DNA of 61,123 nt from Clostridia bacterium (lineage in GTDB: Bacteria > Bacillota > Clostridia > UMGS1810), in contig JAEDEG010000001.1 of NCBI GenBank assembly GCA_016293435.1, forward strand, positions 1-61,123. Reading direction: 5' to 3'. The position numbers and the translations under genes were made by a program. This document shows, piece after piece, positions 3,013-38,399 of the stretch. The notes beneath the pieces are model-generated. The model saw only the letters and a program-made list of their open reading frames with translations. It searched no databases and was not told the DNA's origin. Numbering within the stretch: position 1 is the stretch's first letter; each line of letters opens with the position of its first letter.

Positions 3013-3055
3013 CATAGTACACCTGGCATTTTGTTTCTATACCAGGTGTACTATG
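3013..3055. terminator. Perfect 14 bp inverted repeat (15 nt loop) between convergent mnmA and the glycosidase-like gene; possible bidirectional terminator
   Basis: CATAGTACACCTGG (3013-3026) pairs with CCAGGTGTACTATG (3042-3055). There is no clear U-tract on either side. Confidence 0.35.
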
Positions 3056-5509: not shown

Positions 5510-5698
5510 AACAAACTCCATTTCTAAAGGGATAAACCATTAAATCCGAGCTCTTGATTTACCTGATTTTTCCTATTTGTGAATATTCGCGATATACATA
5601 ATAAGTATAGATATTTTAGAGTGCATAGTCATAATCACTTAAATATTTTGAGTGTTTTGAGATATTTCACAGAACAGCTTTTTTGCCCCCCTGTGGGA

Positions 5699-8600
5699 TC
5701 ATCTAATCAGTTGGACACAAGTAAAATTGCAAAGTGGCATCAATTCATCATTCCAAAGCATGGCTTTCACTGATTGAGTCCCTTTCGGCACAGGAAAATC
5801 CTCCTGCCAGTCAACGGACGAAATCTCTGCGCCTTTAATCTTTTTAAATTGGATAGATTTCAGTTCTTTTCCCGAGTATGCCGCTAAAAACATAGTGATA
5901 TTTTCTTGTGCACATTCTGCCATTTGTGGAATTCGAGCATACACCTGTGCTGTGTAGCTGTCACAAATTACCGTTAACGACGCCCTCTCTGCGAGCGGTG
6001 TAAGCTTTTCTGCACGATAGTTGCGACACGAAAATTCCGCACCTTTCTCCGCCGTTGTGTATTGCAGTTTGCTCAAGGCAATGGCATATGCCGCCGTATT
6101 CGGTTCATTGAACATCACCCATTTTCCGTCAATTTTCACGCTGCATAGCCCCGAATCCAAATCCACCAGTAGCATAATAGGAATCCATTCACCCGGAATG
6201 TACTGGCCACCTCCCAGTATTTGACCATTTGAAATTAATAAGGTGTCATTTAAAAACCAATCGTTTACTTGCTCACTCTTACACTCAAATTCCAATGTTC
6301 CGGAAACAGATGACAACTTTACCTCGCACGATACTGCAAAAATCCCATCTGTGTGCTCTTTGCCTGGTGTTTCTGTTCGAAAATCCATCCAAATAGCAGA
6401 CGAACCATCCGAAACCAATGTAGCACCGTCCGTTGAATATTTAAGCGTTCCTTTTTTTTGAAAAAACCAATTATCATCAGTATCCTCTCTAATCCCATCA
6501 AATCCCGTTAACTCATTTTCATACAGCACTTTTCTGCTATATTTTTTTACCACAAACCTTGCCGCTGTGCTTTCTCGATTGCCCGCTGCATCGATTGACT
6601 CCAATTTGGCAGTATGAATTCCCACGCCAAGTGTTGACACATCAATTTTATCCATTGCATACGGTCTGCCACACACAAGCGGCAAGTTGTATTTTTCCGC
6701 GCCATCCACAAACAGCTTTGCCTCCGATGTTCCATGAGGAAGCTGCACAGTTGCACCAAGCACTCCCTCTCCGTTAACCGAAACATCCAGAAGCATCAGC
6801 TCAGCCTTTGCCTCCTCGCTTGAAGTTGTCCAGGACTCCAACTCAAGAAAGGTCAGCGGCGCTGCGGTGTAGTCCTCGCGAACAGGAATCAGTTTAACCG
6901 AAATGGCAAGATCTCCGCTCGTCTCCTCGACATGTACTGCCAACTTGCGTATACCTGCATTGCTTGATTGTCCCGGAATTGTCGGTGAAGAAGGCAGCGG
7001 TGACGGTGCCATATCCAAAAGCTCAAAATTGGATGCGTTCGAATAAACCTCTACACGCAAAATTTTGCCGTTCTCTGTTAAAATAGCTGTGTTTTTATCT
7101 ATTATTTCAATATTTGCAGGAGTGTGCATAAACCAATACACCTCCGAGCTGCTCCTAAGACTCATTTCATCCTGCACAGTAAGCGTATTTCTATTGTCAC
7201 CGAAAAAATATCCACGATGATAACTCGTTACATCACGCTCATATGCTTCTGAAAGGTCGAGTATTGCCAATGCCTCTGTCTCGCTCGTTTCCTTTCGATA
7301 CAGTCCTGCATACGCATCCAACTTCTGACCGTAGTAGTCGTTTCCGTCTGCGGTCGGATTGATGACCACACAGTTTTCGCCCTCAGGGCGCTTGCGATAT
7401 ATCTGATATCCCACATCAGCAAAATAGTTTGGAATACTGTAGTCATCTTTTCCTAAGTCCTTTGCCCAAGAAACACCGTCAGCTTCAAATATGAACGATC
7501 CCAAATCCAGCATATCGTGATACAAATGTGTCCATCCGCCATGGAAACCGACAAAAGTCGGGTGCACCACATCAAAATTGTTTCGGAAGCTGCCGGTATC
7601 AATTCCCGAAAAATATTTATCAAGTGGCTGTTCTGCAGTATCTACTGCACCGCTTTGGTCTATCATTTTGCTGTAATACAACAGTCCAAGCGCATCCATC
7701 GGCGCACGACGCAGACGATTCTGCTCCCACGCCTGCTGTGCTGTTTCATATTCGCCGTAGCGCAGACCAAACCAATACGGAAATCCCACCGTCAAAGCAC
7801 CCGGAGTACTGTCATGAAAATTAAAGCTTTCCTCCGGCGTTTGCAAATAGACAAATAGGCTGCCCGCTTTCGAAAAGCCACGTACCGAGCCAAGGCCATA
7901 ATCTGTTCCACAACAGTGAAACAAAGCTTCTGTGGAAAGCACCAGATTGCGCAGCATATACTCCGCGTAACCCACACCTTCATAATATCCACCGTCCGGA
8001 TAAAACAGTGATACGGCAATTTCATTGGACTTGATTACATTTTCCAATAAATAGCTTATCTCCTCAAAAAATTTTGTTTCATCTGCCATCGCAAGCGCTA
8101 GTGCCATTACTCCGCCGCCAACAACTCCCGAAAAATTATCCCGAATTACAGGCCAATGAGCACCTCCCTCACCGCGATACGCGCGAATACTATCAGCAAA
8201 AGCGAGTCTTGATGATGCCTCGCGCATAAGCTCTAATGTTTCCTGTCCATACGTTGTTTCTATCATATAATTATAAAAGGAGTCATAGCCTATCGCCATT
8301 CCCATCGCCCAGTGTCCGGTTGTCAGATTCGAGGATGAAAGTCCCAGCGATGTCCATTGGCACAACGTCTTTATGTATGTAATAGCTTCATCAGCATATA
8401 CTTCGTTTCCTGTTAAAAGATATCCCTCTGCCAGTTTTCGCACAGCCTCCTGAAAGTTTCTCGCTTGCATTTGCTTATCAGAATCTGCACAATCTGCCGT
8501 AAAGGATGCCGAAAGTCCCATAGAGATGTTTGCCTCTGCCGTCACGCGAGCCAGTGCCGAATTCCAATTTAAATCTGTCTTGCCTTTTTCTTCAATATAC

Positions 8601-9793
8601 GCAAGGTCTTCGGACGTATACAATATTCTCGGATGCTGACCTTCGACATTTCGCTTAATGTCTGACATCATCTGCTCTCCGCTCGGATGCTCAAATTGCA
8701 GATAGCGATAAATCAAATCTGCCATATCGTACATATCGATAAAATGCTCTGAATCACCGTATTCATATTTTTCTGACGACAAGACGGCTATGCCTCGCTC
8801 ATCGTAGTAAAATTGCTTTCCGAGTTTTGACGCAATCTCTGAAAGCGAAAGATAAACTTCGTTGTTTTTCTGCACAGCAGAAAAGCTTCCTACCCCCGAA
8901 AGCGTAACCGTACTGCCGTTTTTTTCGATTGAATATTCCAAAATGTCACTAACAAATGCACTTGAAACATACACCGTCCCATCCGAAACAATCGGTCTGT
9001 GTGCCACTGTGGGATAGCTCTTGCGTGTGTTATTTTGATAATAATAGTTACTGTAAACTGCATAGGCTTCTTTATCTGCCAGCGCGTTTCGTGCCGCATC
9101 ATAGTTATCCATTATAGAATCGGGATTGTTCATCACACTGTCCTCTGCAGCAGGTGACGTTCCCGAATAAATTCGCAAATCATCTATATAGACATCCACA
9201 TCTCCTGCACCGCTTTTATTGACAACGTCAATGCGCAGGGTGGATGGACGCAGAGTACCCACATAAATAGAACTCCAAGTTAAAACACCATTCATATATA
9301 TATCGCATCTGCCATTTTTTACATTATAAACTGCACTGTAGCGTATCCATTCGCCGGTTTTCCATCGACCTACAGGCTTTTGGGATAAGTAAATGGTTCC
9401 GTCCGTCGTTATGCGTGACCCGATTCTCCACTTAGGATGTACCGCAGTTTTAGCATCAAACAAACCAATATACGCTCCGGAGCCGCTTAATGCATTTACC
9501 TTTAGACGCAACTCAACCACATAGTTGTCTGCCGCCTCTAAAGATGGACAGATAACATCTGCATAGGCACTGTTAGATGTGCCCATCGGTTCCAAAAAGT
9601 GCAAAACACCCTCTCCGCTTACCGTTTCGCGAGTGATGATCCCGTCATAGCTACTGACAGCAATACCGATGCTCTCATCAAAATTCTCCGATACATATAC
9701 CACGCGCTCGTCGGCAGCCCGCACTGATGTTGGAAACAAATTTGCAGACAACAAAAACAATATTGCAGTTAAAAAACTTATTTCTCTTTTCAT
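5699..9793 (-). CDS. Secreted 1364 aa heparinase II/III-fold (alginate-lyase-like toroid) multidomain protein, paralog F
   Basis: Signal peptide MKREISFLTAILFLLSANLFPTSVRA. A LamG-like module ends in VDVYIDDLRIYSG, followed by a copper-amine-oxidase-N-like segment. Lyase-fold blocks are HPRILYTSEDL, LTTGHWAMGMAIGYDSFYNY, YPDGGYYEGVGYAEYMLRN, FVGFHGGWTHLYHDMLDLGSFIFEADG and YRKRPEGENCVVINP. Ig-like and LamG-like modules follow, then the shared C-terminal module. Confidence 0.75.
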   Translation of the reverse strand: MKREISFLTAILFLLSANLFPTSVRAADERVVYVSENFDESIGIAVSSYDGIITRETVSGEGVLHFLEPMGTSNSAYADVICPSLEAADNYVVELRLKVNALSGSGAYIGLFDAKTAVHPKWRIGSRITTDGTIYLSQKPVGRWKTGEWIRYSAVYNVKNGRCDIYMNGVLTWSSIYVGTLRPSTLRIDVVNKSGAGDVDVYIDDLRIYSGTSPAAEDSVMNNPDSIMDNYDAARNALADKEAYAVYSNYYYQNNTRKSYPTVAHRPIVSDGTVYVSSAFVSDILEYSIEKNGSTVTLSGVGSFSAVQKNNEVYLSLSEIASKLGKQFYYDERGIAVLSSEKYEYGDSEHFIDMYDMADLIYRYLQFEHPSGEQMMSDIKRNVEGQHPRILYTSEDLAYIEEKGKTDLNWNSALARVTAEANISMGLSASFTADCADSDKQMQARNFQEAVRKLAEGYLLTGNEVYADEAITYIKTLCQWTSLGLSSSNLTTGHWAMGMAIGYDSFYNYMIETTYGQETLELMREASSRLAFADSIRAYRGEGGAHWPVIRDNFSGVVGGGVMALALAMADETKFFEEISYLLENVIKSNEIAVSLFYPDGGYYEGVGYAEYMLRNLVLSTEALFHCCGTDYGLGSVRGFSKAGSLFVYLQTPEESFNFHDSTPGALTVGFPYWFGLRYGEYETAQQAWEQNRLRRAPMDALGLLYYSKMIDQSGAVDTAEQPLDKYFSGIDTGSFRNNFDVVHPTFVGFHGGWTHLYHDMLDLGSFIFEADGVSWAKDLGKDDYSIPNYFADVGYQIYRKRPEGENCVVINPTADGNDYYGQKLDAYAGLYRKETSETEALAILDLSEAYERDVTSYHRGYFFGDNRNTLTVQDEMSLRSSSEVYWFMHTPANIEIIDKNTAILTENGKILRVEVYSNASNFELLDMAPSPLPSSPTIPGQSSNAGIRKLAVHVEETSGDLAISVKLIPVREDYTAAPLTFLELESWTTSSEEAKAELMLLDVSVNGEGVLGATVQLPHGTSEAKLFVDGAEKYNLPLVCGRPYAMDKIDVSTLGVGIHTAKLESIDAAGNRESTAARFVVKKYSRKVLYENELTGFDGIREDTDDNWFFQKKGTLKYSTDGATLVSDGSSAIWMDFRTETPGKEHTDGIFAVSCEVKLSSVSGTLEFECKSEQVNDWFLNDTLLISNGQILGGGQYIPGEWIPIMLLVDLDSGLCSVKIDGKWVMFNEPNTAAYAIALSKLQYTTAEKGAEFSCRNYRAEKLTPLAERASLTVICDSYTAQVYARIPQMAECAQENITMFLAAYSGKELKSIQFKKIKGAEISSVDWQEDFPVPKGTQSVKAMLWNDELMPLCNFTCVQLIR

Positions 9794-9815
9794 TATCCAA
9801 CCTCACAACCGGCAA

Positions 9816-9869
9816 GGGGAACTACAGAGCAAATTTGATTGCATCAAACCGTAGCCTCTGTAATTCCCC
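9816..9869 (-). other. Intercistronic compound stem-loop between gene E and lyase-like gene F
   Basis: GGGGAACTACAGAG (9816-9829) pairs with CTCTGTAATTCCCC (9856-9869) with one mismatch or wobble. An inner hairpin TTTGAT-tgc-ATCAAA lies in the loop. No U-tract follows on the coding (minus) strand. Confidence 0.45.
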
Positions 9870-9906
9870 TCCACCAATCAAGTCTATGCGTTCGTTTTAC
9901 TATGCT

Positions 9907-11997
9907 TTATTTCGCTGATGCAGTCAAAGGTTTGAGTGTTACCAAATCATTCCACAGGAATGCTTTAAATGTTGTACCGCCCTTTGCATCAGAGATGGTA
10001 TAGCTTAAAGGATTTTTACCCACAGATAGAGATACTTCTGTTGATTCTATAGCGGTTACAATGTCTCCGTTGTACGCTGCTACTATCAGTAAAGCGCTGT
10101 TACCAAAGCAAGAATCGCTTGCTGCTTTAGTCAAAAGTGCCGTAGCTGTTCCATTTACAACCGCAAAGTCTGAAACGGCATCTTCACGGTCATTTAAGGT
10201 AGTAAAGCAAACCTCAAACGGTTTCGCATAATTTACACCACTCGCCTTTAGACCACTCAAAAGAAGCTTATACTCTTTGCTGCCCTTCAACTCACCGGTA
10301 AGGTTCACGGTAATATTAGTACCGCTAACAGCAGCTGAAGCACCAACGCTTTCTCCGCCGTCTGTCGATTCCAATGTTGCAGTAACCTCAGAGGAGTCCA
10401 ACGTACCGTCCATTGCGATGGTAAAGCTATCGGCATAAGAGGAAACCTTTCCATCCGTCCAATCCGCCTTTGCTACCGTGGTGCTATCCTCTGTGTAGCT
10501 GATCGAAGAAAAAGACGGATATCCCTTGGTATAAGTGTATTTTATATCTGAAATCGTAGCATAATCTTCAACATCATTTGTCACCAAATGCATAAATAAA
10601 TCTGTAAGGCTCGTCAAAGCAACCTCATTGTTTGACATTCTTTGACCATTAATCCAATAGCGACACAAAGCCTTGCCGGCAGAGGCCTCATCAAAGTTGA
10701 TTTCAAAGCTCAAATTATAAGGTTGATTTGCAACACAACTGAGACCACCTCTTAATTGACCGTTCTTTAAGAGGTATCCTGTATTGCTTTCTGTTATTGG
10801 TGTGGCACTGCCGCTTTTTCCATTAAAATATGCTGTCATGCTGGTTGGGTCGGAAAAAGCAATCTTCATATCCAGCTGCAGTTTACCGTCCGTAATCGCA
10901 CTGCTGTTGTTTAACCACAATCTGTGAGCATGGGCAGTTGTTCTTCCATCGGGGTAAAAGAGCTTTAGAACACCGTTATCAATCGAAGCATTTGTATCGC
11001 CTACAATATAGAGATTTGCTCCATTGCCTGCAAGCATATCTGTTTGGCTCGGCACAGAACTTGTTGTAATTCCGTTAATCATTGTTTTCGTACTAATAGC
11101 GCCGAAATTTAGCTCCTTCTTGCTCGTCAAAACAGTTCCGTCCTCATACGTTGCCGTAACAGCCAACTCATGGATTCCGTAATTATATGAGGACACATCC
11201 ACATTTGATACAGAAAAATCCGCTTCCGTAACCGTGCCAATGTTTATTCCATCTAAGGTTACCTCTGCCTCGGTAAAGCCTGCCGGCACCGACCCGGAAA
11301 CCGTCAACGGCACTGAGCCGTTGACCAACACTCCATCTTCAGGAGCAGTAATATCCAGTGATGCCAATCTCACGTTATCCAGATGAATGGTCGCCGCGCA
11401 CAGCGGATGGAAACACACGGCAGACACACCATTAAGGTCGGTGTATCCAAACGTACGGGTATCCGCCGTCACAGTCTCTTTCGTCTCTTTGTCTGTCAAA
11501 TTGTATGTAAACTTACCTGTGGTACAATCCACAACGGTTCTCACCGTGTACCATTTCCCTGCATCCCATGAAGCAGAACCGGCTTTGCCATCTGTAGAGA
11601 AAAGATTCATGGACTTACGCCAATGGCCATTTTTGTCTTTTACAGTTACCGCAAGCACACCGTTTGAACTGTCGGTATACTCATAGCCATCTTCAATCAT
11701 CACATCATACGAAATCACAAAAGAGCCTTTCGTTGCTACCGTTTGATTAAAGCGCAAATTGTAAGTGTTTCCATTATCCAAGCCATCTTTTGCATCGGAA
11801 ACAATGGTTGCCACACCATTCTCCAGAGTTCTTGAAACTGTGCCTGTTAATGGTTGTGAACCACTTTCCACCACTTCTGCAGGCCAATCCAAAAGACCGT
11901 CAAAGTCAAATGTTGCCGTTGCAGCTAACACAGCCGGAATCGACAGCATGGACAAAACCATGAACCATGCTAAAACAGTTGCCAAAATTTTTTTCAT
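9907..11997 (-). CDS. Secreted 696 aa LamG-like/Ig-like repeat protein, no recognisable catalytic domain (protein E)
   Basis: The start is trimmed to the ATG at 11997 (MKKILATVLAWFMVLSMLSIPAVLA signal peptide), preceded by AAGGTGGA. A LamG-like module ends in ATIHLDNVRLASL. Ig-like segments follow, then a C-terminal module shared with proteins D and F (LLIVAAYNGD...FKAFLWNDLVTLKPL). Confidence 0.7.
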   Translation of the reverse strand: MKKILATVLAWFMVLSMLSIPAVLAATATFDFDGLLDWPAEVVESGSQPLTGTVSRTLENGVATIVSDAKDGLDNGNTYNLRFNQTVATKGSFVISYDVMIEDGYEYTDSSNGVLAVTVKDKNGHWRKSMNLFSTDGKAGSASWDAGKWYTVRTVVDCTTGKFTYNLTDKETKETVTADTRTFGYTDLNGVSAVCFHPLCAATIHLDNVRLASLDITAPEDGVLVNGSVPLTVSGSVPAGFTEAEVTLDGINIGTVTEADFSVSNVDVSSYNYGIHELAVTATYEDGTVLTSKKELNFGAISTKTMINGITTSSVPSQTDMLAGNGANLYIVGDTNASIDNGVLKLFYPDGRTTAHAHRLWLNNSSAITDGKLQLDMKIAFSDPTSMTAYFNGKSGSATPITESNTGYLLKNGQLRGGLSCVANQPYNLSFEINFDEASAGKALCRYWINGQRMSNNEVALTSLTDLFMHLVTNDVEDYATISDIKYTYTKGYPSFSSISYTEDSTTVAKADWTDGKVSSYADSFTIAMDGTLDSSEVTATLESTDGGESVGASAAVSGTNITVNLTGELKGSKEYKLLLSGLKASGVNYAKPFEVCFTTLNDREDAVSDFAVVNGTATALLTKAASDSCFGNSALLIVAAYNGDIVTAIESTEVSLSVGKNPLSYTISDAKGGTTFKAFLWNDLVTLKPLTASAK

Positions 11998-12089
11998 AAA
12001 AATTTCCACCTTTCCATTTTTAAAATTTATTTCTCTTTGTATTGCTTTTGCAAATTTTCTCCCAACCGCCACATATTTAGGTGAGCTTT

Positions 12090-13730
12090 TCAATTGTTTA
12101 ACTTATATGCTTTGGTAAGTGCTTTGCGTTCAGCTAAAGAATTCAGAATATAACATTCTACCGAAAAACTCTCTGCATATCGTTCGTCTGATGGTATCAT
12201 CACACTAAGTGACTGTGGAGTACTTTCGGAGTGTGCATCTGCAGAAATCTCTGCCGCAGTAATTGCACAAAGGCGAGTGCCGCAATATATTGCTGCAACA
12301 GCCACTGCAGTTTGTGCCTGCAGCGAACGATTGCTTAATGTGATTACAGCATCAACAACATCGCCTCTTTTTAGTTGCCTTGCCGAAACACAATTACTGC
12401 CGTTTTTCATATAAGTTACATTTTTTAAACCTATTTCCTCTGTATTTACCGTAAAACGTTTTTCATACTTTACAATCTCCTGTGTATCCGGAAAACGAAT
12501 ACCCATTTGCACAACAATTTCTCCATCAGGTAAATTTTCTGCAAACTCTATCACCGCTGCACCTGCACTGTCTAACCGCGAAGATGAAACCGCAAGTTCT
12601 TTGCCGTCTGCAAATACAGAAAGTTCACTTATGTCTGTGCTTACCGCCGCAGGAGAAATACTTTCAAGCTTTATTACTCTGGCGGGCTCCGAAATTACAT
12701 TTGTATCTGCCGAAACAAAGCTTTCATCCGACGCCTTATATTTCAAGGTGTTATAGCCACTTAAAACATCTGTTTGAGTAAGTACTACATTATCTAAATA
12801 AAAGCCTTGTGCATCGGTGTATGCATCCGTAACGTAGTATTCAAATTTTATCTGTGTGAGATTATTAGCATTGGCATGTGCCTCGATATTGTTTTTGGTT
12901 GATACCGGTTCATTATTTACATATACACTTTCTCGCTTTGTATAGGTGTTGAGAACCTGCTTTACATGCATCCATTCGCCCTTAAGATACGGAATCGATG
13001 TACCGTGATAGAATCCTCCTCTCGAGAACAAATATTGCCCTCCAAAATATCCGAAAGTACCTGACGAGTTTTTTGTTTCAATATCTACACGACCCGGATT
13101 CAGAATTTTTATATCATATTCCAATTCAATAACACCCGAAAGCGCATCAAATTGCTTCATTATGAAGAAACCGTCTTTTGCTCCATTTACTGTAATATTT
13201 CTCAATGTCGGATTTTCTGCAATCACCCTACCTATGGAGCCGTTTTCATCTCCGTCCTTCCCTTCTCCCATAACCGTGCGAATATAAACATCAGTGCCAT
13301 CGGCTGCCGTTCCGACCTTTTTGTCAGGCTCCACAGTCCATCCATCGTTTGCACCATTCGTAAATGTTTCATTTACAATTGGTTTTGCGAGACTTTTTTG
13401 AATTGAAAATTTACTCTCTGCTACTGCAGAGGAGCCTTCGTCAAACACAACAACCGAAACTGTATGTTCACCAATGCGCAGAGTATCGGCAATTGAAACG
13501 CTATTTTCGCCCTCTGAGGTTAAAAATGCAATTTCCTCTCCATCTAACTTAACTATTGCCTGCGCACCAACCGGCGCACTAAACTCTATACTGCTAAGGC
13601 TCACATCACATATCGACCCATTTACAGGAGACAGAATTTCTACATTTATCTCTGCGCTGACAGGAAAACAAAAAAGACTTAAAATCACTGCAAAAACAAC
13701 AAGCATAGAAGTAACTTTTTTCCAATTCAT
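12090..13730 (-). CDS. Secreted 546 aa Ig-like/LamG-like protein, no recognisable catalytic domain (protein D)
   Basis: Signal peptide MNWKKVTSMLVVFAVILSLFCFPVSA. A LamG-like module ends in QGFYLDNVVLTQT. The C-terminal module (AVAVAAIYCGTRL...SVECYILNSL) is related to the C-termini of proteins E and F. Confidence 0.7.
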   Translation of the reverse strand: MNWKKVTSMLVVFAVILSLFCFPVSAEINVEILSPVNGSICDVSLSSIEFSAPVGAQAIVKLDGEEIAFLTSEGENSVSIADTLRIGEHTVSVVVFDEGSSAVAESKFSIQKSLAKPIVNETFTNGANDGWTVEPDKKVGTAADGTDVYIRTVMGEGKDGDENGSIGRVIAENPTLRNITVNGAKDGFFIMKQFDALSGVIELEYDIKILNPGRVDIETKNSSGTFGYFGGQYLFSRGGFYHGTSIPYLKGEWMHVKQVLNTYTKRESVYVNNEPVSTKNNIEAHANANNLTQIKFEYYVTDAYTDAQGFYLDNVVLTQTDVLSGYNTLKYKASDESFVSADTNVISEPARVIKLESISPAAVSTDISELSVFADGKELAVSSSRLDSAGAAVIEFAENLPDGEIVVQMGIRFPDTQEIVKYEKRFTVNTEEIGLKNVTYMKNGSNCVSARQLKRGDVVDAVITLSNRSLQAQTAVAVAAIYCGTRLCAITAAEISADAHSESTPQSLSVMIPSDERYAESFSVECYILNSLAERKALTKAYKLNN

Positions 13731-13796
13731 AGTTTCAATACCTTTCTGTTTAAAGTTTTTCTGCTACGAAGCTGCACTCCGCAGCAGTTGTTTTTT

Positions 13797-16700: not shown

Positions 16701-18224
16701 AATCATCAGACTTCCGCAGATGTTGCGCACTTTTTTCTTATCATCGGTTGGGATTATTTTCTTACCGTTTACATACATTGCATCATTTGTTGTCATAAAG
16801 ACGGTTCTGCCCTTCAAAGCCTCTCCCAGCTTATCCTTTGGATCCATAACGGAGTAGTCGTTGAAGCCGGAGTTATCATCATCTCCGACATTATCTGACA
16901 CAAATAGCGAATCATCCTGAAGCGTTTTACCGGTATAAATTCTAATCCAGTCAAACGAAACATCAAAATTACTTCCTGCTTGATTTAAAACGTCTACACG
17001 AAAGGTCACCGGATAGTTGTCCGTAGGAACCGCGTGTAAAGCCGCAAATTCACCATTTATATATACCTCTGCTTTTCCTGCAGGAATGTTATATACAAAG
17101 GAAAGTCGCACCCATTCGTCCTTTGGTATGCTGCCTATACTCTTGCCTGCGCCATGGGATGAGATTGAACCACCCGTGGAAATATCGTAGCCCAGCCGCC
17201 ACTTTGAGTTCATGTCCTTGGCGTCGAGAATACCAATGCTTGCATTGCCCGTTAAGCTGTTGATTTTAAAACGGACATCGTACACATATTTCATGCATTC
17301 GCGTAAATCGTTGTTAACTACATCAAAAAATCCGCCGCCCACAACCTTTTCGTCCGCCACTACACGAAGACAACCGTTTCTATCATTATCTGATTCCCAT
17401 TTAAAAACGGCACCTTTTGGAGAAGCTTCGCCGTTGTGAGTTGAATGTGTTTTAACCATAGCAATGGAATCATCAAACTCCATATCCGTCAAAATCTTTA
17501 CGGAACTATCTATGCTCTGGGTCGGGGTAAACTCCAGCACTTCGTTGTTGACCGTTTCTGCCGGAAACGTACGCTGCCACGGAAGATCTTCACCTTCATA
17601 AACGCGGATGTTATCTACATAAATATCTGTTTCTGTTTCACCGTCATCAATCTGAAATTCAACCGTTTGCGGATGCATCCAAAAGCCGTTCGGCAAAAAC
17701 CAATTGCGCACAATACATCTTTTGTCAATGTACACATCATAAACCTGTTGCTCCCAATCTACCACAATCGTATAGGTCCTGTAAATTCCGTCCGGTACCG
17801 TACCAACGATTTTTCCATCTGATAAACGCATGCTTCTATCTTCATTCAAAGTAAGCAACGCCAGCTTCTTCTCACCTGAAATCATATTAAAAAGCTTCCC
17901 GGAAAACTCTTTACCCGTCATTTTAATTTTTGCACTAAATACACTTTTCGTAGGCTCTGCACTTGGGAGCGTCAAGCTGAAAATAACCGGATCTCCCCAC
18001 GCTCTCGAAAAGAACACTTTATTTCCGTTCTCGTCAAGCACTCTTGTATCCAAACCTGTGGATGCCGTAAAATTTTTAATTTTAGCACTGTTGGCAGGAT
18101 AGGATGAAAATTCTTCAGAATACCAAACCTCTCCCAAATCCGCCACTGCGAAAACAGGAACGGACGAAAATAACATCAAGACAGATAACAGCACTGCAAT
18201 CCATTGTTTTTTCATGCTACGCAC
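13797..18224 (-). CDS. Secreted 1475 aa heparinase II/III-fold multidomain protein with C-terminal F5/8 type C (discoidin) domain, paralog C
   Basis: Signal peptide present. Two LamG-like modules end in TDIYVDNIRVYEG and FDVSFDWIRIYTG. A copper-amine-oxidase-N-like segment includes VYFPLRAVAEQL. Lyase-fold blocks are colinear with paralog F: HPRILYTSDDV, LTTGHWAAGMAIGYDSFYNY, YPDGGYYEGVSYSEYMLEN, FVGFHAGWTNMPHDMLDLGSFVFESDN and YRKRPEGENCIVLNP. A cadherin-like beta-sandwich segment follows, then a C-terminal discoidin-like block AWFEIDMGEVLEFDGVSLVF...YIRLIGNGN. Confidence 0.75.
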   Translation of the reverse strand: MRSMKKQWIAVLLSVLMLFSSVPVFAVADLGEVWYSEEFSSYPANSAKIKNFTASTGLDTRVLDENGNKVFFSRAWGDPVIFSLTLPSAEPTKSVFSAKIKMTGKEFSGKLFNMISGEKKLALLTLNEDRSMRLSDGKIVGTVPDGIYRTYTIVVDWEQQVYDVYIDKRCIVRNWFLPNGFWMHPQTVEFQIDDGETETDIYVDNIRVYEGEDLPWQRTFPAETVNNEVLEFTPTQSIDSSVKILTDMEFDDSIAMVKTHSTHNGEASPKGAVFKWESDNDRNGCLRVVADEKVVGGGFFDVVNNDLRECMKYVYDVRFKINSLTGNASIGILDAKDMNSKWRLGYDISTGGSISSHGAGKSIGSIPKDEWVRLSFVYNIPAGKAEVYINGEFAALHAVPTDNYPVTFRVDVLNQAGSNFDVSFDWIRIYTGKTLQDDSLFVSDNVGDDDNSGFNDYSVMDPKDKLGEALKGRTVFMTTNDAMYVNGKKIIPTDDKKKVRNICGSLMIPQTLLEEVTKKSFVYDKVAGTISVGSRSMKVEPAPVEENGIVYFPLRAVAEQLLKKKVIWDNRGFVVLSDDELENTSEYHYLDRHILFHPIDLIYRYMQFDNPTGAQMTKALVDNFPNKQHPRILYTSDDVKYIQGKIQSSPEWKRAYKELIAEADEWAKEDYSYFATLEASEKQRAARFTFQAAIEDLAEAYLITEDPVYAAKGVEMMLAMAQWKDMSWETANLTTGHWAAGMAIGYDSFYNYMTATDDGKEKMKTIREAVLRLPFADQITDYQTGVGPYWITLQDNFVGVIGGGLLMLTLAMADEEDMQPQTNYLMENLMKSLETAVGLYYPDGGYYEGVSYSEYMLENFVMALGALFNCCKTDYGLGDAKGFIKAGDPFTYLQSTDYHMQYHDDGGGFINDPSREFFAWRYNDPISAEAARVQKTLGGHVINLRAMFYYSRAVTDRGVTPDISQLPLDYYFYGVDTGGFTNSREISDPTFVGFHAGWTNMPHDMLDLGSFVFESDNVIWARDLGSDSYNLPNYFGLKGYNIYRKRPEGENCIVLNPKEDVENYYGQELGVQGTLTKLETDNPMGAFAAFDLTQAYQRDASKYIRGYYFGDERNSLIVQDELTVNDNTELYWFMHTATEIEIISNTKAKLISNSGQTLTVEVYSNIEGYTLMDMPAEPLPTSPKVAGQSSNAAFRKLTIYAPSVSGDAVIAVKLSPDNGKYEQTPLIYTPIDEWTIPDGELPQLAKFSGIYADGELISGFMPGKRNYTIDLPYGTKQIPQITATSDMGNVTIKQAQNFDEYTEITLVVAGQKPVVCVVSYNVSSERPITIRENIFAVTPTVGQMGTLIAPVHAYGMTIPEMDNGPKNMTDDSMKSYYAQGKIGAWFEIDMGEVLEFDGVSLVFYLGNERKANYDILYSMDGINFTKVFSGQSTGETAGYESLKIPGKARYIRLIGNGNTQGSAYTSIGDFRVFQE

Positions 18225-18228
18225 CTCC

Positions 18229-20886
18229 TTATTCGTAAATAAATATCTGTTGAATACCGTGTGAATAAGATTTTAGCACAATATTTGACGCATTTTCTTT
18301 TCCCACATAAAGCGCATCAACCAGCATACTCTTTTTACCTTGATGTATGGTTTTTCTCTCTGTGTTATATACCGCAATCGTCATGCTTGAATTCATGGCA
18401 AAGGGCGCAATGTTATCGATGATAGGGTCAGAATAGCCGGAGTTAAACCCCGCCGCTTGGTCTACAATAAGACTTAGCGTGTTGTCACTGTGAACAAATA
18501 CTCTGCCACGATAGCAAGAATCGTCCACCTGTCCCGTTTTTGGTGCATTTGAAGTAATAATTGCAATTTTTTGACTATCGTCGTATTTTGCGTCAATAAC
18601 CAAGGATTTGATATAACCGTTTCCATCTACCGTCATGCGGATAATATCACCCGATGAGGGAACCATATTTGTTTTAAATAGCTCATCATACATATCCATA
18701 TCAATTTTATATTTAAAGAAGGTTCCTCTGCACCAAAGAATGATATTATATATTTCTTCACCGTCTTCGCTAATTCCTTTGGAAAGCCCCTCTACCAGTG
18801 ATTGGTTTTCTTTTACGCTCACAGTTGATGCATCACCGACCGTATCATAGATAACCACAACCCTCGGCTGCATATATTTGTTCATGTCATAGGCATCGAT
18901 GGTATATCTGCCGTAAGACTCCAAGGAATCACTCCCAATCACTTCAAACAAATCTTCGTCCAATTTATCTGTTGTTCCTTGCAATATTTGAACGGGGATT
19001 CGGAACATAATCGTTTGACCGCCTTTTATTGCATGAGGTGAAAACACTTGATTCCCCGAATGCCAATAGGATTTGGTACCTGATAAAAAGCGTGTCAAAG
19101 AGTCATTTCCATAGTTGATTCCGCTGTATTTTTCTTCTATCGGTAAGTCAGCCACATCTAATGCTGTATCGATTTTTGAAAGTTTGCCCTCTTCATCTGT
19201 CTCATAGCGTAGCAACTGATATCTCGGTAAATTTCCGTTGGCGAGTGCCGAATCAAATTTATCGTCGTCACTTTTTAATCTTTCTCCGTTTAACATTACT
19301 TTTTCACCAAAATCAAGTGTCAATAGCTTGCCGCTCTCACTCAACAGCTTTATACGAACATCATTCGAAAGTCCGTTTACTATCTTTCCATAGTTAATAA
19401 GATATCCATATTTTAAAATACTGTCGGACTCAGAAGAAAACGAGCAGATTGTGCCGTCCGGAGCTACTAAAAAATTGCATTCCGCACCAAGCACCAGCCG
19501 GCTTTGTTCCGAAAAATAGCCGTTTAATTTGTACGATACTCCACCAACAACTATTTCGTCCTCTTGTTTTTGTTCCAATACACCGTTAACCTGAGTATTC
19601 GAAACCACCGCTTCTACATATTTTCCGTCATCACTTGCATATACCATCAAAACAGAATCTGCTGAAAGATTATGTAATTTAATCTCTTTTTTTTCACCGT
19701 CACAGAGAGTGTACCAATAACCGTTTTCGCGCTGCATGATAACACTATTGCCACCGTTTTTACTATCGTAAACAATACCTTCGCTCTGATTAACCGAGGC
19801 AACAACCATATATATGGCAGGTTTTGCATATACAACATCAAATTTGCCATCAAAATCATTATCGATTAATGTTAGCTCACCTGCATCGAATTTAAAATCG
19901 CTCTCCGTCGGCACCGCATTTCTGCCATTTCTTACAAAGGTAAAAGCACTGCTAATTTTAAATTTTTTCTCTTGTTTTGCATCTTCATCATATACCGTAA
20001 GAACGCTATTTTTAAAGCTTTCTACATAATTTCCTTTCACTGTAACCGATTCATTTCTCGGCTCAACATATATGTGCTTTATTTCTTCATGTTTATCATA
20101 CCAACCTATCACACGATATCCTAAATACCGCTCCACTTCTGTCAGTTCGGTCGTAAAACTCTTTCCCCCAATGGTGATTTTTGAACTGTCACATACCTCA
20201 TCGGGAACCATAGTTGTATATCCGGCCGTTTTTAAAACACCGATGATCTTTTTCAAATTGTATTTCTCATTTAACAGAGAAATACCCGTGTCACGAACCT
20301 CAGAAATTCTGTCGTTATTTATTGAAACAACACGACACATATCTGCATTTAACATATTGTATATTAAAATAACTGCATCGTAATAACTTAGTTTGCATTC
20401 ATAATCCACGGAACGATTCTCTAACAAATCAAGTTCTCTCGCTGTAAATATGTAACCTGTCGGATATCCACCTTTTGCTATTGCAAATCTGTCATAGCCA
20501 AGTGCAGAAACAGTCATTTTCAAGGCAGGTATAAGCTCTATCGAATCATTGGGACGAAATACAGAATTTCCCGTACCGGTAACAATGCCCAGTGCCGCAG
20601 CAGTTGAAATTGACTGTGCATAGGGTGTTGATTTCTCTACATCAGAAAAACTTGTTTTCCATTCTCCTTCAGGCAACGCAAGCGCCCGTACAACCATATC
20701 TGTAAACTCGGCACGAGTAACTGCCTCTGCTGCATCATGCGTACCGGAAACAATGCCTAAAGAGGTAAGAAAACCGTACACACTCTCATATTGCGAATCT
20801 GTTTTCAAACTCTCCTCAGCATAAGCTATACCGAGGGATGACATTGCAACAAGCACCACTATCAAAAAAAACAAGCATTTTTTCAT
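18229..20886 (-). CDS. Secreted 885 aa protein with N-terminal SLH repeats and a long beta-rich region of unknown function (protein B)
   Basis: Signal peptide MKKCLFFLIVVLVAMSSLGIAYA. SLH-like repeats include FSDVEKSTPYAQSISTAAALGIVTGTGNSVFRPNDSIELIPALKM. The stop overlaps the AAGGAGGTG RBS of gene C, leaving a 4 nt gap. Confidence 0.7.
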   Translation of the reverse strand: MKKCLFFLIVVLVAMSSLGIAYAEESLKTDSQYESVYGFLTSLGIVSGTHDAAEAVTRAEFTDMVVRALALPEGEWKTSFSDVEKSTPYAQSISTAAALGIVTGTGNSVFRPNDSIELIPALKMTVSALGYDRFAIAKGGYPTGYIFTARELDLLENRSVDYECKLSYYDAVILIYNMLNADMCRVVSINNDRISEVRDTGISLLNEKYNLKKIIGVLKTAGYTTMVPDEVCDSSKITIGGKSFTTELTEVERYLGYRVIGWYDKHEEIKHIYVEPRNESVTVKGNYVESFKNSVLTVYDEDAKQEKKFKISSAFTFVRNGRNAVPTESDFKFDAGELTLIDNDFDGKFDVVYAKPAIYMVVASVNQSEGIVYDSKNGGNSVIMQRENGYWYTLCDGEKKEIKLHNLSADSVLMVYASDDGKYVEAVVSNTQVNGVLEQKQEDEIVVGGVSYKLNGYFSEQSRLVLGAECNFLVAPDGTICSFSSESDSILKYGYLINYGKIVNGLSNDVRIKLLSESGKLLTLDFGEKVMLNGERLKSDDDKFDSALANGNLPRYQLLRYETDEEGKLSKIDTALDVADLPIEEKYSGINYGNDSLTRFLSGTKSYWHSGNQVFSPHAIKGGQTIMFRIPVQILQGTTDKLDEDLFEVIGSDSLESYGRYTIDAYDMNKYMQPRVVVIYDTVGDASTVSVKENQSLVEGLSKGISEDGEEIYNIILWCRGTFFKYKIDMDMYDELFKTNMVPSSGDIIRMTVDGNGYIKSLVIDAKYDDSQKIAIITSNAPKTGQVDDSCYRGRVFVHSDNTLSLIVDQAAGFNSGYSDPIIDNIAPFAMNSSMTIAVYNTERKTIHQGKKSMLVDALYVGKENASNIVLKSYSHGIQQIFIYE

Positions 20887-20904
20887 GTTAAATTCACTCC
20901 TTCT

Positions 20905-22566
20905 TTATGCCGTCAGCACATTGTAAATCAGCTGAGCCGCCTGCACTCTCGTCAGGAAACTCTTGGGTGAAAACGTGCCGTCCTCAAAGCCGTTTACAAA
21001 GCCTTCACCCGCAAGGTAGGAAACAGCATTTTTAGCATAGTAGGATATCTCATCAGCATCAGAAAAATTAACTTTTTTAGACAAAAGTCCTTTTTTGGTC
21101 AAAAGACGATATATTATCACCACTGAATCTTCTCTGGTTATTTTATCATTGGGCCTAAAACTCGTATTGTCGCCTTTCACAATACCCGCCGCTGTTGCAC
21201 TGTATACGCATTCAGCAAACCAATCTGTACTTTTAACATCATCGAACAAAACTCCGGTATCTGTTTTGGGAGGTTCTTCATTAAGAATTTTACCATATAA
21301 TCCCATTGTCATCTTAACAAATTCTGCACGGCTGATTTCCTTCGACGGCAAAAAGCTTCCATCCTGATAACCATTTAAAATGCCTTCTGCTGTTAAAAGA
21401 GATACCGACTTTGCACCCCAATGCTCTACAGGCAGGTCAGTAAAGAGTTGCTTTATTGTCTCTTCTTCTTTTTCGTTATCTGCCTCTTTTTCAATTGAAG
21501 ATGTAATCACAGTGCCTTTGCTTCCTCCTTTGCTCCCTCCACCGCTGCCGCTACCACCATTATCTTTAGCTTCATCTACTGCCTCAGCTACGCTATCAAG
21601 AAAAATCTCTTTAATATCTTCAAAGGTTGTAGGGGTTTTCTTTTTTTTCATCAGTTCAAAAACTCTGTCTTGTTCCGATAAATTCAAATAATTCCGGTCT
21701 TCCAACAATTCTTTAAAATCTGCGGCAAAATCCTTTGCTATAATTTCTTTAAATGTCACCCAATTGTTTGCACAACGCAATGCTGCCAGTGGTTTAAGCT
21801 CAGTTAATGTTTCTGAAAGTTCTTCCGGGGTATAGTGGCTGTACAAATCTGTTTCTGCAAACAGTGACAAAAGTTCTTGCTTTGCATTATCATCTAAACG
21901 AGTTTCGCTATAATACAAAGCTTCCATATCAATCCCCAACTGTTCTTGGTATTTACCGAGCAATAGCTCAATTTGGTCTTTTTTTGCAATTTTAATAGAG
22001 CAAATTGCATAAACCATATAATAATTTCGGTTAAAATCTACCGAATCGCCAAACGTCATATTATATAACATTTTGGTGATTCTGTTGTTTTCTGAAATAT
22101 AAACAGCATCGTTTGTGTCGATACCTAAGATCTGAGCATTGTCTGCAAGCAATGTGCGAAATACATTAATATCTTCTGCATCGTTTAATGCTTCAATCAC
22201 AGAACTTGCTGCCGTAGTATCAATATGCATAAATGAATCTGTTGCCTCTCCTTCATCACTTGTTGCATATACAATATATTTTCCACCCGCTGCATTATAT
22301 GGCATGCCTATATTCAGAGCAAATACTCCGCTTGAGCTTATCTGTTTAATAACCATCGGCATGGAAGAAACTGTCATATCGGAAGGCAAAAGTTCTTCCG
22401 GTGTTATGGTAATTACAATTTCTCCGTGACCTGTTCCTGTAATAGCCAGTTCTGCTGTATTAGGCTTATAAGCTACCGAAATCGAAATATCTTCTTTCGC
22501 AAAAACAACCATACCATTTAGCAAAATATGTATTGAAGTTAATATACTAACTATTTTTTTTACCAT
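20905..22566 (-). CDS. Secreted 553 aa protein with three C-terminal SLH repeats (protein A), first gene of the operon
   Basis: Signal peptide present, then an Ig-like N-terminus, a helical middle and a G/S linker (GGSGSGGGSKGGSKG). The three SLH repeats are FTDLPVEHWGAKSVSLLTAEGILNGYQDGSF, FDDVKSTDWFAECVYSATAAGIVKGDNTSF and FSDADEISYYAKNAVSYLAGEGFVNGFEDGTF. RBS AAGAGGTGA precedes the start. Confidence 0.8.
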   Translation of the reverse strand: MVKKIVSILTSIHILLNGMVVFAKEDISISVAYKPNTAELAITGTGHGEIVITITPEELLPSDMTVSSMPMVIKQISSSGVFALNIGMPYNAAGGKYIVYATSDEGEATDSFMHIDTTAASSVIEALNDAEDINVFRTLLADNAQILGIDTNDAVYISENNRITKMLYNMTFGDSVDFNRNYYMVYAICSIKIAKKDQIELLLGKYQEQLGIDMEALYYSETRLDDNAKQELLSLFAETDLYSHYTPEELSETLTELKPLAALRCANNWVTFKEIIAKDFAADFKELLEDRNYLNLSEQDRVFELMKKKKTPTTFEDIKEIFLDSVAEAVDEAKDNGGSGSGGGSKGGSKGTVITSSIEKEADNEKEEETIKQLFTDLPVEHWGAKSVSLLTAEGILNGYQDGSFLPSKEISRAEFVKMTMGLYGKILNEEPPKTDTGVLFDDVKSTDWFAECVYSATAAGIVKGDNTSFRPNDKITREDSVVIIYRLLTKKGLLSKKVNFSDADEISYYAKNAVSYLAGEGFVNGFEDGTFSPKSFLTRVQAAQLIYNVLTA

Positions 22567-22627
22567 GATTCACCTCTTATAATACTTTCTTATCTATTGT
22601 TTTTATTCGCGATATCAGCAGTTTTAT

Positions 22628-22643
22628 ATATATATCATGTCTT
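22628..22643. promoter_or_regulatory. Copy 1 of a 16-mer direct repeat ATATATATCATGtCTT in the AraC/operon divergent intergenic region
   Basis: Matches the copy at 22722-22737 at 15 of 16 positions. The two copies are 94 bp apart. Confidence 0.35.
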
Positions 22644-22721
22644 TTATATAACTGTATAAGATACATAAATTCAAAAATTGCCGGTGTTTGTTCAAATCTC
22701 CATTATATAAATGTTATATAG

Positions 22722-22737
22722 ATATATATCATGACTT
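22722..22737. promoter_or_regulatory. Copy 2 of the 16-mer direct repeat ATATATATCATGaCTT
   Basis: See copy 1. Candidate regulator half-sites, but the region is AT-rich so a chance match is possible. Confidence 0.35.
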
Positions 22738-22969
22738 GCAGCAAGATCACTCATAAGTCCCCATGCCCAGACATGTTAGCCACCGCCTATATAACAAATT
22801 TTTATGTTTGCAACACTATTTTCGTTATACCTCAATTACAATTTCTCCTCTTTTTTTAAATATTATTTATGCTCAACCAATTTTGTAATCTTATATATCA
22901 TTATATATTGGATAAATAATATTTTCCTTAATAATTTAGATAAAATATGCAAAAAACATTAAAATATGG

Positions 22970-22998
22970 TTGACTTTTACTATTTTGCATGATATTAT
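22970..22998 (+). promoter_or_regulatory. Candidate sigma-A promoter for the AraC-family gene
   Basis: TTGACT at 22970-22975, 17 nt spacer, TGaTATTAT extended -10 at 22990-22998. It lies only about 8 nt before the GTG at 23006, so the mRNA is near-leaderless or the true start is downstream. Confidence 0.4.
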
Positions 22999-23005
22999 TA
23001 GATAG

Positions 23006-23842
23006 GTGATTGATGTGGATATTGTATTTGAAGGATTCAATAATGATGGATTGTATGTTGAAAGAAGCGAGTATTCTTATAATGAAATGCCGAGTTTCCA
23101 TACACATAATAAGCATGAACTCTATTTTTTAGAGCAAGGAATAACAAAATATTTTATAGGAAATAAAATATATATATTAAAACCCGGTGATTTTATTTTT
23201 ATTCCTAAAGGACAATATCATCAAACAACTATAAATGAGAGTGAAAAACGTCAACGCTTGCTTTTGACATTTGATAGTGCCTTTGTTGGAAGCGGATATT
23301 TAAAATACATTCAAGAACTTATTTTGGATAAGCATATACATATTCATGAAGAGCACATGAATGATTTAAAATATATTCTAAAAAAAATTGAAGATGAAGA
23401 AAAAAATAAATTTGGCGATTATGAAAAAATGCAAAAGATGTATCTTAGGCAATTGCTAATACTTATCACGCGTAACAGAATAAAAGAACAGTGCGTCGTA
23501 ATTAGCGAAAATGAAAAGCTTGTGCAAGAAGCAGCAGTGTACATAAGTGAAAATTATGAACAGGAACTTTGTCTCGAAAATTTAGCAAATAGATATTCTG
23601 TAAGCCCCGGCCATTTTTCAAAGCTATTTAAAAGGATTACCGGTGTTGGTGTAAGTGAATATATAAGAATATCAAGGGTCAATGCAGCTCAAGAACTTAT
23701 AGAAAGTACTAAACTGTCAATTACAGAAATTGCTCAAAAATGTGGATTTAATGATAGCAATTATTTTACACAGGTTTTCAAAAAAATTGTAGGCATCACA
23801 CCAAAAAAGTATTCTATGCAAAATCGTCACGCCGTCAAGTGA
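23006..23842 (+). CDS. AraC-family transcriptional regulator (N-terminal cupin sensor, C-terminal dual HTH)
   Basis: Cupin-like FHTHNKHELYFLEQG...GDFIFIPKGQYH. The AraC HTH region is LENLANRYSVSPGHFSKLFKRITGVGVSEYIRISRVNAAQELI...ITEIAQKCGFNDSNYFTQVFKKIVGITPKKY. The exact start is uncertain (GTG at 23006 or 23015, or the ATG at 23087). Confidence 0.85.
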   Translation: MIDVDIVFEGFNNDGLYVERSEYSYNEMPSFHTHNKHELYFLEQGITKYFIGNKIYILKPGDFIFIPKGQYHQTTINESEKRQRLLLTFDSAFVGSGYLKYIQELILDKHIHIHEEHMNDLKYILKKIEDEEKNKFGDYEKMQKMYLRQLLILITRNRIKEQCVVISENEKLVQEAAVYISENYEQELCLENLANRYSVSPGHFSKLFKRITGVGVSEYIRISRVNAAQELIESTKLSITEIAQKCGFNDSNYFTQVFKKIVGITPKKYSMQNRHAVK

Positions 23843-35904: not shown

Positions 35905-35908
35905 TAGT

Positions 35909-37900: not shown

Positions 37901-37915
37901 TAGGATTTTTATAAA

Positions 37916-37951
37916 AATACCCCCTGAATTTTTATTTCGGTGGGTATTTTG
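37916..37951 (+). terminator. Intrinsic terminator after the two-gene operon
   Basis: AAATACCC (37916-37923) pairs with GGGTATTT (37942-37949), followed by a TT run. Confidence 0.5.
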
Positions 37952-38000
37952 TCATATATTCGGAAAAATCCAATATATATTTTATCGAGGTGAAACCAAA

Positions 38001-38387
38001 ATGGAATTAGGGTATATTACTGCAAGAATATATACATCAGATGCAGAACTGCCAATTGAAGGAGCATCTTTTAGCGTCATCTCAGCAGATGAAAATGCTC
38101 CAAAGCTTTTGGGCACGCGAATTACAGATGAAAACGGGAAAACAACAAGTATAGAAATAGAAGCTCCAAATTCCGAACTGTCACAGAGCCCCGGAAATCC
38201 AACACCATATACATCGGTAAATATACGCGTTGACCACCCGGACTTCAATACACGTTATGTAGAGGGAGTTCAGATTTTTGCAGGGCAGGTTGCTGTACAA
38301 AATGTTCCGATGATTCCAACAGATGATCATATCGAACCGGATCTGAAATCCGATACATACTACATTGAACCAAATATCAACCTGTAA
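38001..38387 (+). CDS. Carboxypeptidase-regulatory-like beta-sandwich protein, homologous to the N-terminal pro-region of SleC-type cortex lytic enzymes
   Basis: The ATG at 38001 follows GAGGTGA (37988-37994). The track ORF from 37815 overlaps the upstream gene and terminator. Sequence: ITARIYTSDAELPIEGASFSVI...VNIRVDHPDFNTRYVEGVQIFAGQVAVQNVPMIP. Confidence 0.7.
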   Translation: MELGYITARIYTSDAELPIEGASFSVISADENAPKLLGTRITDENGKTTSIEIEAPNSELSQSPGNPTPYTSVNIRVDHPDFNTRYVEGVQIFAGQVAVQNVPMIPTDDHIEPDLKSDTYYIEPNINL

Positions 38388-38399
38388 GGAGGTACGCTA

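Follow-up and report, generated by a model that had tools for sequence, protein, structure and literature searches.

We analysed a 61,123-nt stretch of DNA (hereafter the window; contig JAEDEG010000001.1) from an uncultured spore-forming gut Clostridia bacterium. It contains a block of ~19 kb that encodes two giant proteins (C and F) related to polysaccharide lyases of family PL35, two SLH-domain proteins (A and B), two lectin-like proteins (D and E) and a glycoside-hydrolase-like protein (G). An earlier note, made from the sequence alone, had described A-F as an SLH-anchored, LamG-rich surface locus with two heparinase-fold paralogs. The six minus-strand genes were reproduced as described there, running from 22566 down to 5699 with gaps A-B, B-C, C-D, D-E and E-F of 18, 4, 66, 92 and 113 nt (Table 1).

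A purine-rich ribosome-binding site precedes each of the genes A-F, and all six products are predicted to be secreted; judged by eye, 6/6 N-termini resembled signal peptides, with basic residues, a hydrophobic stretch and an A-x-A-type site, in agreement with the earlier description. The true start of C is most likely the ATG at codon 4, 9 bases downstream of the annotated GTG, because a GGAG directly abuts that GTG; the B-C gap would then be 13 nt. A longer open reading frame (ORF) of E, starting with TTG and reaching 12093, lacks a ribosome-binding site. G lies 189 nt from F and has no signal peptide, and a gene for an AraC-type regulator lies 439 nt upstream of A. The flanking genes are housekeeping genes (mnmA at one end, prfB and secA at the other), and the G+C content of the block is 42-46%, compared with 30-39% in its surroundings. 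No intrinsic terminators were found between the block genes, no direct or inverted repeats of ≥11 nt were found flanking the block, and Rfam families gave zero matches in the window.

Table 1. Genes and control elements of the block and its borders (MFE, minimum free energy).
Feature	Position	Strand	Description
A	20905-22566	minus	553 aa; N-terminal 350 aa unassigned, three C-terminal SLH repeats (wall anchor)
B	18229-20886	minus	885 aa; N-terminal SLH domain, then ~700-750 aa all-beta
C	13797-18224	minus	1475 aa; multi-modular PL35-like lyase; likely start ATG 18215
D	12090-13730	minus	546 aa; secreted, Ig-like and jelly-roll modules, no catalytic domain
E	9907-11997	minus	696 aa; jelly roll, Big_7, Big_5, C-terminal ~100-aa domain as in F
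F	5699-9793	minus	1364 aa; multi-modular PL35-like lyase, paralog of C
G	3164-5509	minus	cytoplasmic, glycoside-hydrolase-like; GH106-type jelly roll at C-terminus; last gene of conserved block
AraC/XylS-type regulator	23006-23842	plus	cupin sensor and HTH_18; divergent from A
AraC-A control region	22567-23005		AT-rich, divergent; three TATATATCAT copies, candidate operator
E-F intercistronic hairpin	9794-9906	minus	no U-tract; MFE -40 kcal/mol
Perfect 17-bp hairpin	3016-3052		between convergent mnmA and G; candidate two-way terminator

C and F were 41% identical across 999 aa and 48% identical in their cores, which bears out the proposal that they are paralogs. The core of C occupies residues ~600-1240 and consists of a toroid plus a sandwich. 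In phmmer searches of PDB sequences, C matched 8khv (1.2e-32, residues 621-1180), 8khw (1.5e-29) and 9o3q (1.4e-21), and F matched 8khw (5.2e-34, residues 378-932), 8khv (3.1e-29) and 9o3q (1.6e-27). These three solved PL35 lyases were the only full-length matches of the two catalytic modules among all PDB sequences. A family profile matched the PL35 structures at 2.5e-77, 1.7e-63 and 1.3e-59; the next family scored 1.2e-9. Pfam called the DUF4962 (PF16332) toroid module in C (6.5e-9) and F (1.8e-8), both exceeding the cutoff. It did not call Hepar_II_III_C (PF07940) in either protein, which is a first point against a lyase assignment; the region of C that lacks this call still aligned with the PL35 sandwich, and homologs P0009, L024, L033, L037, L052 and L059 do match PF07940. 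Judged by their sequences, C and F are divergent relatives of family PL35 with a heparinase II/III-type fold, and the toroid and sandwich recognised in the earlier note can be given this sharper assignment.

Mutagenesis of PL35 showed that Asn192, Tyr246 and His401 (GAGase II numbering) are essential (PMC12088678). The Mn2+ ligands of GAGase II (His403, Asp405, Asp421, and His457) are also required, and their alanine mutants are inactive (PMC12088678). These residues were mapped onto C via a HMMER alignment, the chain and paper numberings differing by 22. N796, Y852 and H1003 of C are the aligned equivalents of the triad, which was invariant in a ten-sequence alignment (A1); among 96 relatives, Asn and Tyr were each present in 96/96 and His in 88/96. 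The His/Tyr pair, whose conservation had been left for checking, was thus found in the alignments of C and F with PL35, together with the neutralising Asn.

The metal site gave a less uniform result. Two of the four Mn2+ ligands were changed in C, F and ~16 close relatives (His403 to Met1005, His457 to Glu1050), at positions where most other relatives keep His. This altered site might impair C and F, and it raises the alternative that they are catalytically dead or non-lytic, serving as binding proteins or as C5-epimerase-like enzymes. Alanine mutants at the same two positions inactivate GAGase II, there is a weak match to dermatan-sulfate epimerase, which has the same fold, and DUF4962 is now named "DSE-like_N" in Pfam. 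However, the triad is retained, the Met/Glu state is fixed across the subclade of ~16 proteins and is not scattered decay, both Asp ligands are kept in C (D1007 and D1023), and Glu and Asp1004 can bind metal. In the closest related locus, moreover, the lyase is linked to GH88, an enzyme that is meaningful only after a lyase. We consider loss of lytic activity highly improbable. The alignments point to an intact catalytic triad and a metal site remodelled in this subclade, with lyase activity predicted for C, F and the clade as a whole.

Both lyases carry several accessory modules. C contains, in order, two ConA/LamG-like modules, a Cu_amine_oxidN1-like segment, the catalytic core and an F5/8-C tail similar to carbohydrate-binding module (CBM) family 32; F contains a Laminin_G_3-like module, a Cu_amine_oxidN1-like segment, the core, an immunoglobulin (Ig) domain, a ConA-like jelly roll and a C-terminal beta sandwich. 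The tail of C matched Pfam F5_F8_type_C at 4e-13, its nearest solved relatives being the CBM32 modules of alginate lyases (3.6e-16), and the Cu_amine_oxidN1 segment was borderline in both proteins (24.2 bits, equal to the cutoff). These two parts of the module list first given for C could be kept; a cadherin-like segment, listed there as well, received no support from Pfam.

Laminin_G_3 itself was found by Pfam weakly and in F alone (5.6e-5). A hidden Markov model (HMM) of the N-terminal module of F matched both N-terminal modules of C, and an HMM of the C-terminal jelly roll of F (1085-1265) matched D 198-298 (1.3e-8 at Z=10000) and E 54-173 (8e-6). The two jelly-roll types are related with an hhalign probability of 78%. 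In an AlphaFold2 (AF2) model of F 930-1364 (pLDDT 79.6), an Ig domain, a jelly roll and a beta sandwich were seen, with structural matches to galectin-like YesU-type proteins, L-type lectins, SPRY domains and CBMs. Because of the module HMMs, the hhalign comparison and the fold of the F tail, the label "LamG-rich" is justified if taken to refer to the ConA-like superfamily. No catalytic Pfam family was found in D or E, and no PDB relatives of either by sequence, consistent with their earlier description as non-catalytic; jelly-roll and Ig-like modules are common to them and F. The Ig domains of E were called by Pfam as Big_7 (4.4e-4) and Big_5 (8.5e-4), and an HMM of the last 100 aa of F matched E 610-693 (1e-5). 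D homologs directly follow a C-type lyase in 10 loci.

A word-indexed search with F gave 9 proteins and missed C. It understated the family and was corrected by a genome scan and profile search. The scan, of one genome per species, found 313 lyase relatives, and the best 76 loci were analysed. Their hosts are uncultured gut Clostridia/Oscillospiraceae (from Hadza humans, goat, deer and chicken), Paenibacillus, Cohnella and Vallitalea. The closest locus (hereafter the sister locus), in a Hadza-gut "uncultured Clostridia" metagenome-assembled genome (MAG), was 84-86% identical in DNA over exactly 3198-22588, from G to A, with G itself at 86%. Beyond both points the window and the sister genome are unrelated, and the borders of similarity are sharp. 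On this DNA comparison the conserved unit is a seven-gene block, G to A, and not the six genes first proposed. The AraC gene, which had been counted as part of the locus, lies outside the shared block, since DNA similarity ends at 22588; similar small AraC genes (~290 aa) stand beside 15 related loci.

The sister locus carries an ABC transporter (substrate-binding protein and two permeases) and an oxidoreductase upstream of A, and GH88, WYL and integrase genes downstream of G. Its GH88 protein matched 2zzr (6.8e-87) and the Bacillus GL1 unsaturated glucuronyl hydrolase (UGL) 1vd5 (5.3e-75). A GH105 identity, which the Pfam family PF07470 would also cover, was rejected, the best PDB matches all being unsaturated glucuronyl hydrolases. 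The window contains neither GH88 nor a sugar ABC transporter, as first reported. However, because the sister locus and most related loci carry both, this absence is a local rearrangement and not the trait of the system that it had seemed. Among the related loci, 22 had GH88 and ~33-40 had ABC transporter genes. The sharp borders, the differing flanks, the G+C content 5-10 points higher and the position of the sister copy beside WYL and integrase genes (L001 19783-21423) suggest that all of the block is moved or reshuffled together.

The order A, B, lyase, often followed by D, recurred in ~30 loci of uncultured gut Clostridia. One uncultured Clostridia MAG (CALCLY...; L008, L009, L010, L011, L031) had about nine PL35-like lyase genes spread over five loci; a B gene was present in at least four of these loci, and A as well in three. 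This looks like the multiplication of polysaccharide-utilisation loci (PULs) in Bacteroides. Paenibacillus lyase loci without A/B contained GH88, a 750-aa AraC-type regulator, an ABC transporter and an intracellular heparinase II/III. Some related loci had further neighbours. Large genes downstream of the lyase in the Clostridia loci L014 (14407-21418), L006 (14443-23816) and L012 (16292-20278) had no Pfam family or only DUF4838 or weak matches, and are likely carbohydrate-active enzymes (CAZymes) of the same pathway. A CBASS-like defence set (SMODS/DncV-like nucleotidyltransferase, SAVED effector, ThiF and JAB; L086 13215-18452) adjoins one A-B-lyase locus.

The conserved A-B pair is the most original element of the locus. 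The SLH domain is a module that binds pyruvylated wall polymers. Pfam found three SLH stretches in A (1.7e-35), which also matched the SLH of Sap in the PDB (3.6e-17); the N-terminus of A had 3 close relatives in the word-indexed homolog search. In B, Pfam called one SLH stretch (2.7e-10), and an AF2 model (pLDDT 84.6) showed a complete SLH domain with a TM score of 0.82 to SpaA-SLH (6cwl) and 0.68 to Sap (3pyw). The SLH repeats placed at the C-terminus of A and the N-terminus of B, and the beta-rich remainder of B, were therefore all recovered. No Pfam family was found for this beta region. A DDB1 triple-propeller fold was not accepted for it (Foldseek TM <0.1), and a tandem propeller-like build can only be guessed at from the number of strands in the model. 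The non-SLH region of B had 2,236 relatives (50% clusters, E≤1e-10), nearly all of ~880 aa and with the same layout.

No SLH, dockerin or sortase signal was found in C or F, so the observation that neither lyase has its own anchor holds. Pfam gave no match to cohesin or dockerin in A-F, even at E≤5. Among 28 B genes, a full-length A homolog was directly upstream in 21/28 and a lyase directly downstream in 19/28, mostly with gaps of ≤30 nt. None of the lyases in A/B loci had its own SLH (0/40), compared with 7/51 in loci without A/B. A physical multi-subunit apparatus of the locus proteins, as proposed earlier, is plausible because of the gene order, the tight spacing and the Paenibacillus SLH fusions.

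Several results temper this idea. The gene-order loci were retrieved through the lyase, which biases the B-lyase adjacency. When B-like genes were sampled independently of the lyase, 2/7 lay beside one, 3/7 lay with an A-like partner in other, lyase-free PUL-like loci (L081, L082, L084), and 2/7 were alone (L083, L085). The contrast between SLH fusions and separate A/B proteins is suggestive but confounded by phylogeny. Because only 2/7 of the independent B-like genes adjoin a lyase, the A-B pair is broader in distribution than the lyase.

These results bear on a rival explanation in which A and B are general SLH surface proteins, either S-layer-associated or glycan-capturing like the surface glycan-binding proteins of Bacteroidota, and do not dock enzymes; C-F would then be released freely, their genes being clustered by a shared nutrient pathway. 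The non-SLH family of B far exceeds the lyase set in size (2,236 clusters of uniform length, compared with 313), A-like/B-like pairs or B-like genes occur in the lyase-free loci just named, and cohesins and dockerins were absent from the A-F searches. On the other side, the genes for A, B and the lyase stay closely adjacent even among relatives of only 25-40% identity, and the lyases in A/B loci are anchorless whereas some Paenibacillus homologs are anchored. We consider this explanation unlikely. A wider proposal is that A-B is a widespread, previously undescribed two-protein display platform of gut Clostridia that keeps giant CAZymes and lectin-like proteins, which lack anchors of their own, attached to the wall with no cohesin-dockerin pairs, a Gram-positive counterpart of cellulosome anchoring and of Sus-like machinery, reused for different glycans in multi-copy cassettes. 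We put it forward tentatively and regard it, in this full form, as rather doubtful.

G matched the NCBIfam model rhamnoside_JR at 67.9 bits (cutoff 50) and, in the PDB, BT0986 (5mwk, 1.6e-15) with its C-terminal domain only. Pfam GH106 scored 18.8 bits against a cutoff of 29, the clear match being confined to the C-terminal jelly roll. The AraC protein contained a double helix-turn-helix and an N-terminal cupin (Pfam HTH_AraC 9.7e-24, HTH_18 2.9e-21, Cupin_2 3.8e-10, AraC_binding 1.3e-7). Between this gene and A, copies of TATATATCAT lie at 22629, 22723 and 22892; the whole window has 4 copies, compared with 0.4 expected. Two of the copies extend to a 19-nt direct repeat with a spacing of 94 nt. 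The TATATATCAT repeats are a candidate operator of the AraC protein.

The sister locus also has a hairpin at the E-F position, which shows one compensatory change of A-U to G-C. A second hairpin, in the C-D gap (13731-13796, -19 kcal/mol, no U-tract), is retained there as well; the corresponding gaps of the sister locus are L004 18323-18420 and 14432-14500. Both hairpins may mark sites of mRNA processing or stability that set the protein ratio, and attenuation is also possible for the E-F hairpin. The 17-bp repeat beyond G is likely a terminator shared by mnmA and G, though it has no clear U-tract.

The nature of the substrate was considered from the enzymes linked to the lyases. From the presence of GH88, glucuronate (or iduronate) is expected at the cleavage site, and the substrate is most likely a glycosaminoglycan (GAG)-type chain or another chain containing glucuronic acid (GlcA). 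Between the two, we lean slightly towards a GAG-like chain. Its evidence is the kinship with PL35, the sister GH88, which is closest to a streptococcal chondroitin-disaccharide hydrolase, and GH123 in four relatives. In three Paenibacillus loci a formylglycine-type sulfatase with SGSH_C (CAPSR motif, Pfam 4e-56) directly follows the lyase (L037 14652-16061, L048 13177-14646, L079 13648-15069), which hints at a sulfated substrate there.

The substrate could instead be a microbial or plant GlcA polymer, possibly with rhamnose (gellan/sphingan-like, glucuronan, gum-arabic-type side chains or a bacterial capsule), and not a host GAG. The jelly roll of G is of the type found in GH106, an alpha-L-rhamnosidase family, relatives occur in soil Paenibacillus, Cohnella and Vallitalea besides herbivore, chicken and human guts, and no sulfatase was found in the window or its closest relatives. 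The C positions aligned with the PL35 substrate-cleft residues Arg87, Arg88 and His136 are not conserved. The first description of GH88 came from the gellan pathway of Bacillus sp. GL1, and the sister GH88 matches 1vd5. Against such a polymer, the only characterised relatives of C and F act on hyaluronan, chondroitin sulfate and heparan sulfate, the best match of the sister GH88 is the streptococcal enzyme, and GH123 and the SGSH-type sulfatase lie beside the lyase in some relatives. A non-GAG substrate is a serious alternative, though in our view a somewhat improbable one.

Taken together, A-G and the local AraC regulator probably form a Gram-positive polysaccharide-utilisation module for an acidic, glucuronate-containing glycan. 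In the mechanism we propose, the AraC protein would sense a breakdown product through its cupin domain and switch the operon on. The wall-sited A and B would hold the anchorless lyases and the lectin-like proteins at the surface, or would capture the polymer there. C and F would cleave the polymer by beta-elimination, with Tyr and His as acid and base and Asn neutralising the carboxylate. The resulting oligosaccharides, ending in 4,5-unsaturated glucuronate, would be imported by an ABC transporter and trimmed by GH88. The transporter and GH88 genes adjoin the block in the sister genome and would have to be elsewhere in the present one. The cytoplasmic G would trim the imported oligosaccharides further. 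Of the components of a PUL, the window has the regulator and CAZymes but lacks the sugar transporter, which is present in the sister locus and most related loci. Besides this gap, the remodelled metal site and the low share of independently sampled B-like genes beside lyases, the proposal is weakened with regard to a single transcript: hairpins occur in both the C-D and the E-F gap, and a promoter-like site precedes G.

Outside the block, prfB, encoding release factor 2, has a programmed +1 frameshift site (CTT TGA C) at 25037-25043 on the minus strand, preceded by a GAGGG Shine-Dalgarno-like element; the prfB ORF at 23975-24889 lacks the N-terminus because the frameshift site lies upstream of it. 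Two adjacent ORFs of 476 and 663 aa at 34474-37900 have no Pfam family. They are followed at 38400-43199 by a PG_binding_1 protein, a WG-repeat protein and a tyrosine integrase (42204-43199), and the region 34474-43199 may be a second, unrelated island.

The locus reveals a large uncharacterised Gram-positive branch of PL35, with 313 matches among species-representative genomes. Its members are 2-3 times larger than the characterised PL35 lyases and rich in binding modules, and in gut Clostridia (of Hadza humans, goats, deer and chickens) they are linked to the SLH pair. The kind of enzyme is known; what is new is a Gram-positive, SLH-associated, multi-modular PL35 branch with a recurrent layout. 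If A/B docks enzymes, this would be a new route of CAZyme display for monoderm gut bacteria. If the substrates are host GAGs, little-known Clostridia would join Bacteroides as degraders of host-matrix glycans. The B family, with >2,000 clusters, no Pfam model and a confident AF2 model, represents a sizeable piece of unannotated surface biology.

No description of this gene block was found in the searchable literature. The nearest characterised systems are the PL35 lyases of Bacteroidota (GAGase II, 8KHV; GAGase VII, 8KHW; chondroitinase, 9O3Q), whose whole DUF4962 toroid and beta-sandwich align with C and F. They are likewise secreted and have the same triad, so Tyr/His beta-elimination is expected. 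They differ in being single-module proteins of 624-648 aa from Gram-negative PULs, whereas C and F, of 1,364-1,475 aa, add LamG-like, Cu_amine_oxidN1-like and CBM32-like or lectin-like modules. Two Mn2+ ligands and the basic cleft-lining residues also differ, and the partners of the Bacteroidota enzymes are SusC/D, whereas those of C and F are SLH proteins.

PL35 in Paenibacillus genomes has been reported in dbCAN-based papers. The uncharacterised Paenibacillus/Cohnella homologs (e.g. L024, L037, L052, L059), at 26-31% identity, show the same order of Cu_amine_oxidN1, DUF4962, Hepar_II_III_C and F5/8-C, and are also linked to GH88, an ABC transporter and AraC-type regulators. They differ in having no A/B pair, with three SLH repeats on the lyase itself in some cases, and in having the second, intracellular heparinase II/III and, in three loci, the SGSH-type sulfatase.

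Streptococcal GAG loci with UGL (GH88; 2ZZR, 3ANJ) contain the closest relatives of the sister GH88, and both systems pair a lyase with a subsequent unsaturated glucuronyl hydrolase. The streptococcal loci use PL8 lyases and a phosphotransferase system, and they include the GH88 gene that the window lacks. In the cellulosome of Clostridium thermocellum, the SLH scaffoldins SdbA and OlpB hold anchorless enzymes on the wall. They are the model for a docking role of A and B, although cohesin and dockerin are undetectable in A-F. Lastly, in the XynA1 xylanase system of Paenibacillus sp. JDR-2, an SLH-anchored depolymerase reportedly acts at the wall, oligosaccharides enter through an ABC transporter, and breakdown is finished inside the cell. 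XynA1 is a glycoside hydrolase with its own SLH repeats, whereas in the present locus two separate proteins carry the SLH repeats, and the enzymes are predicted lyases.

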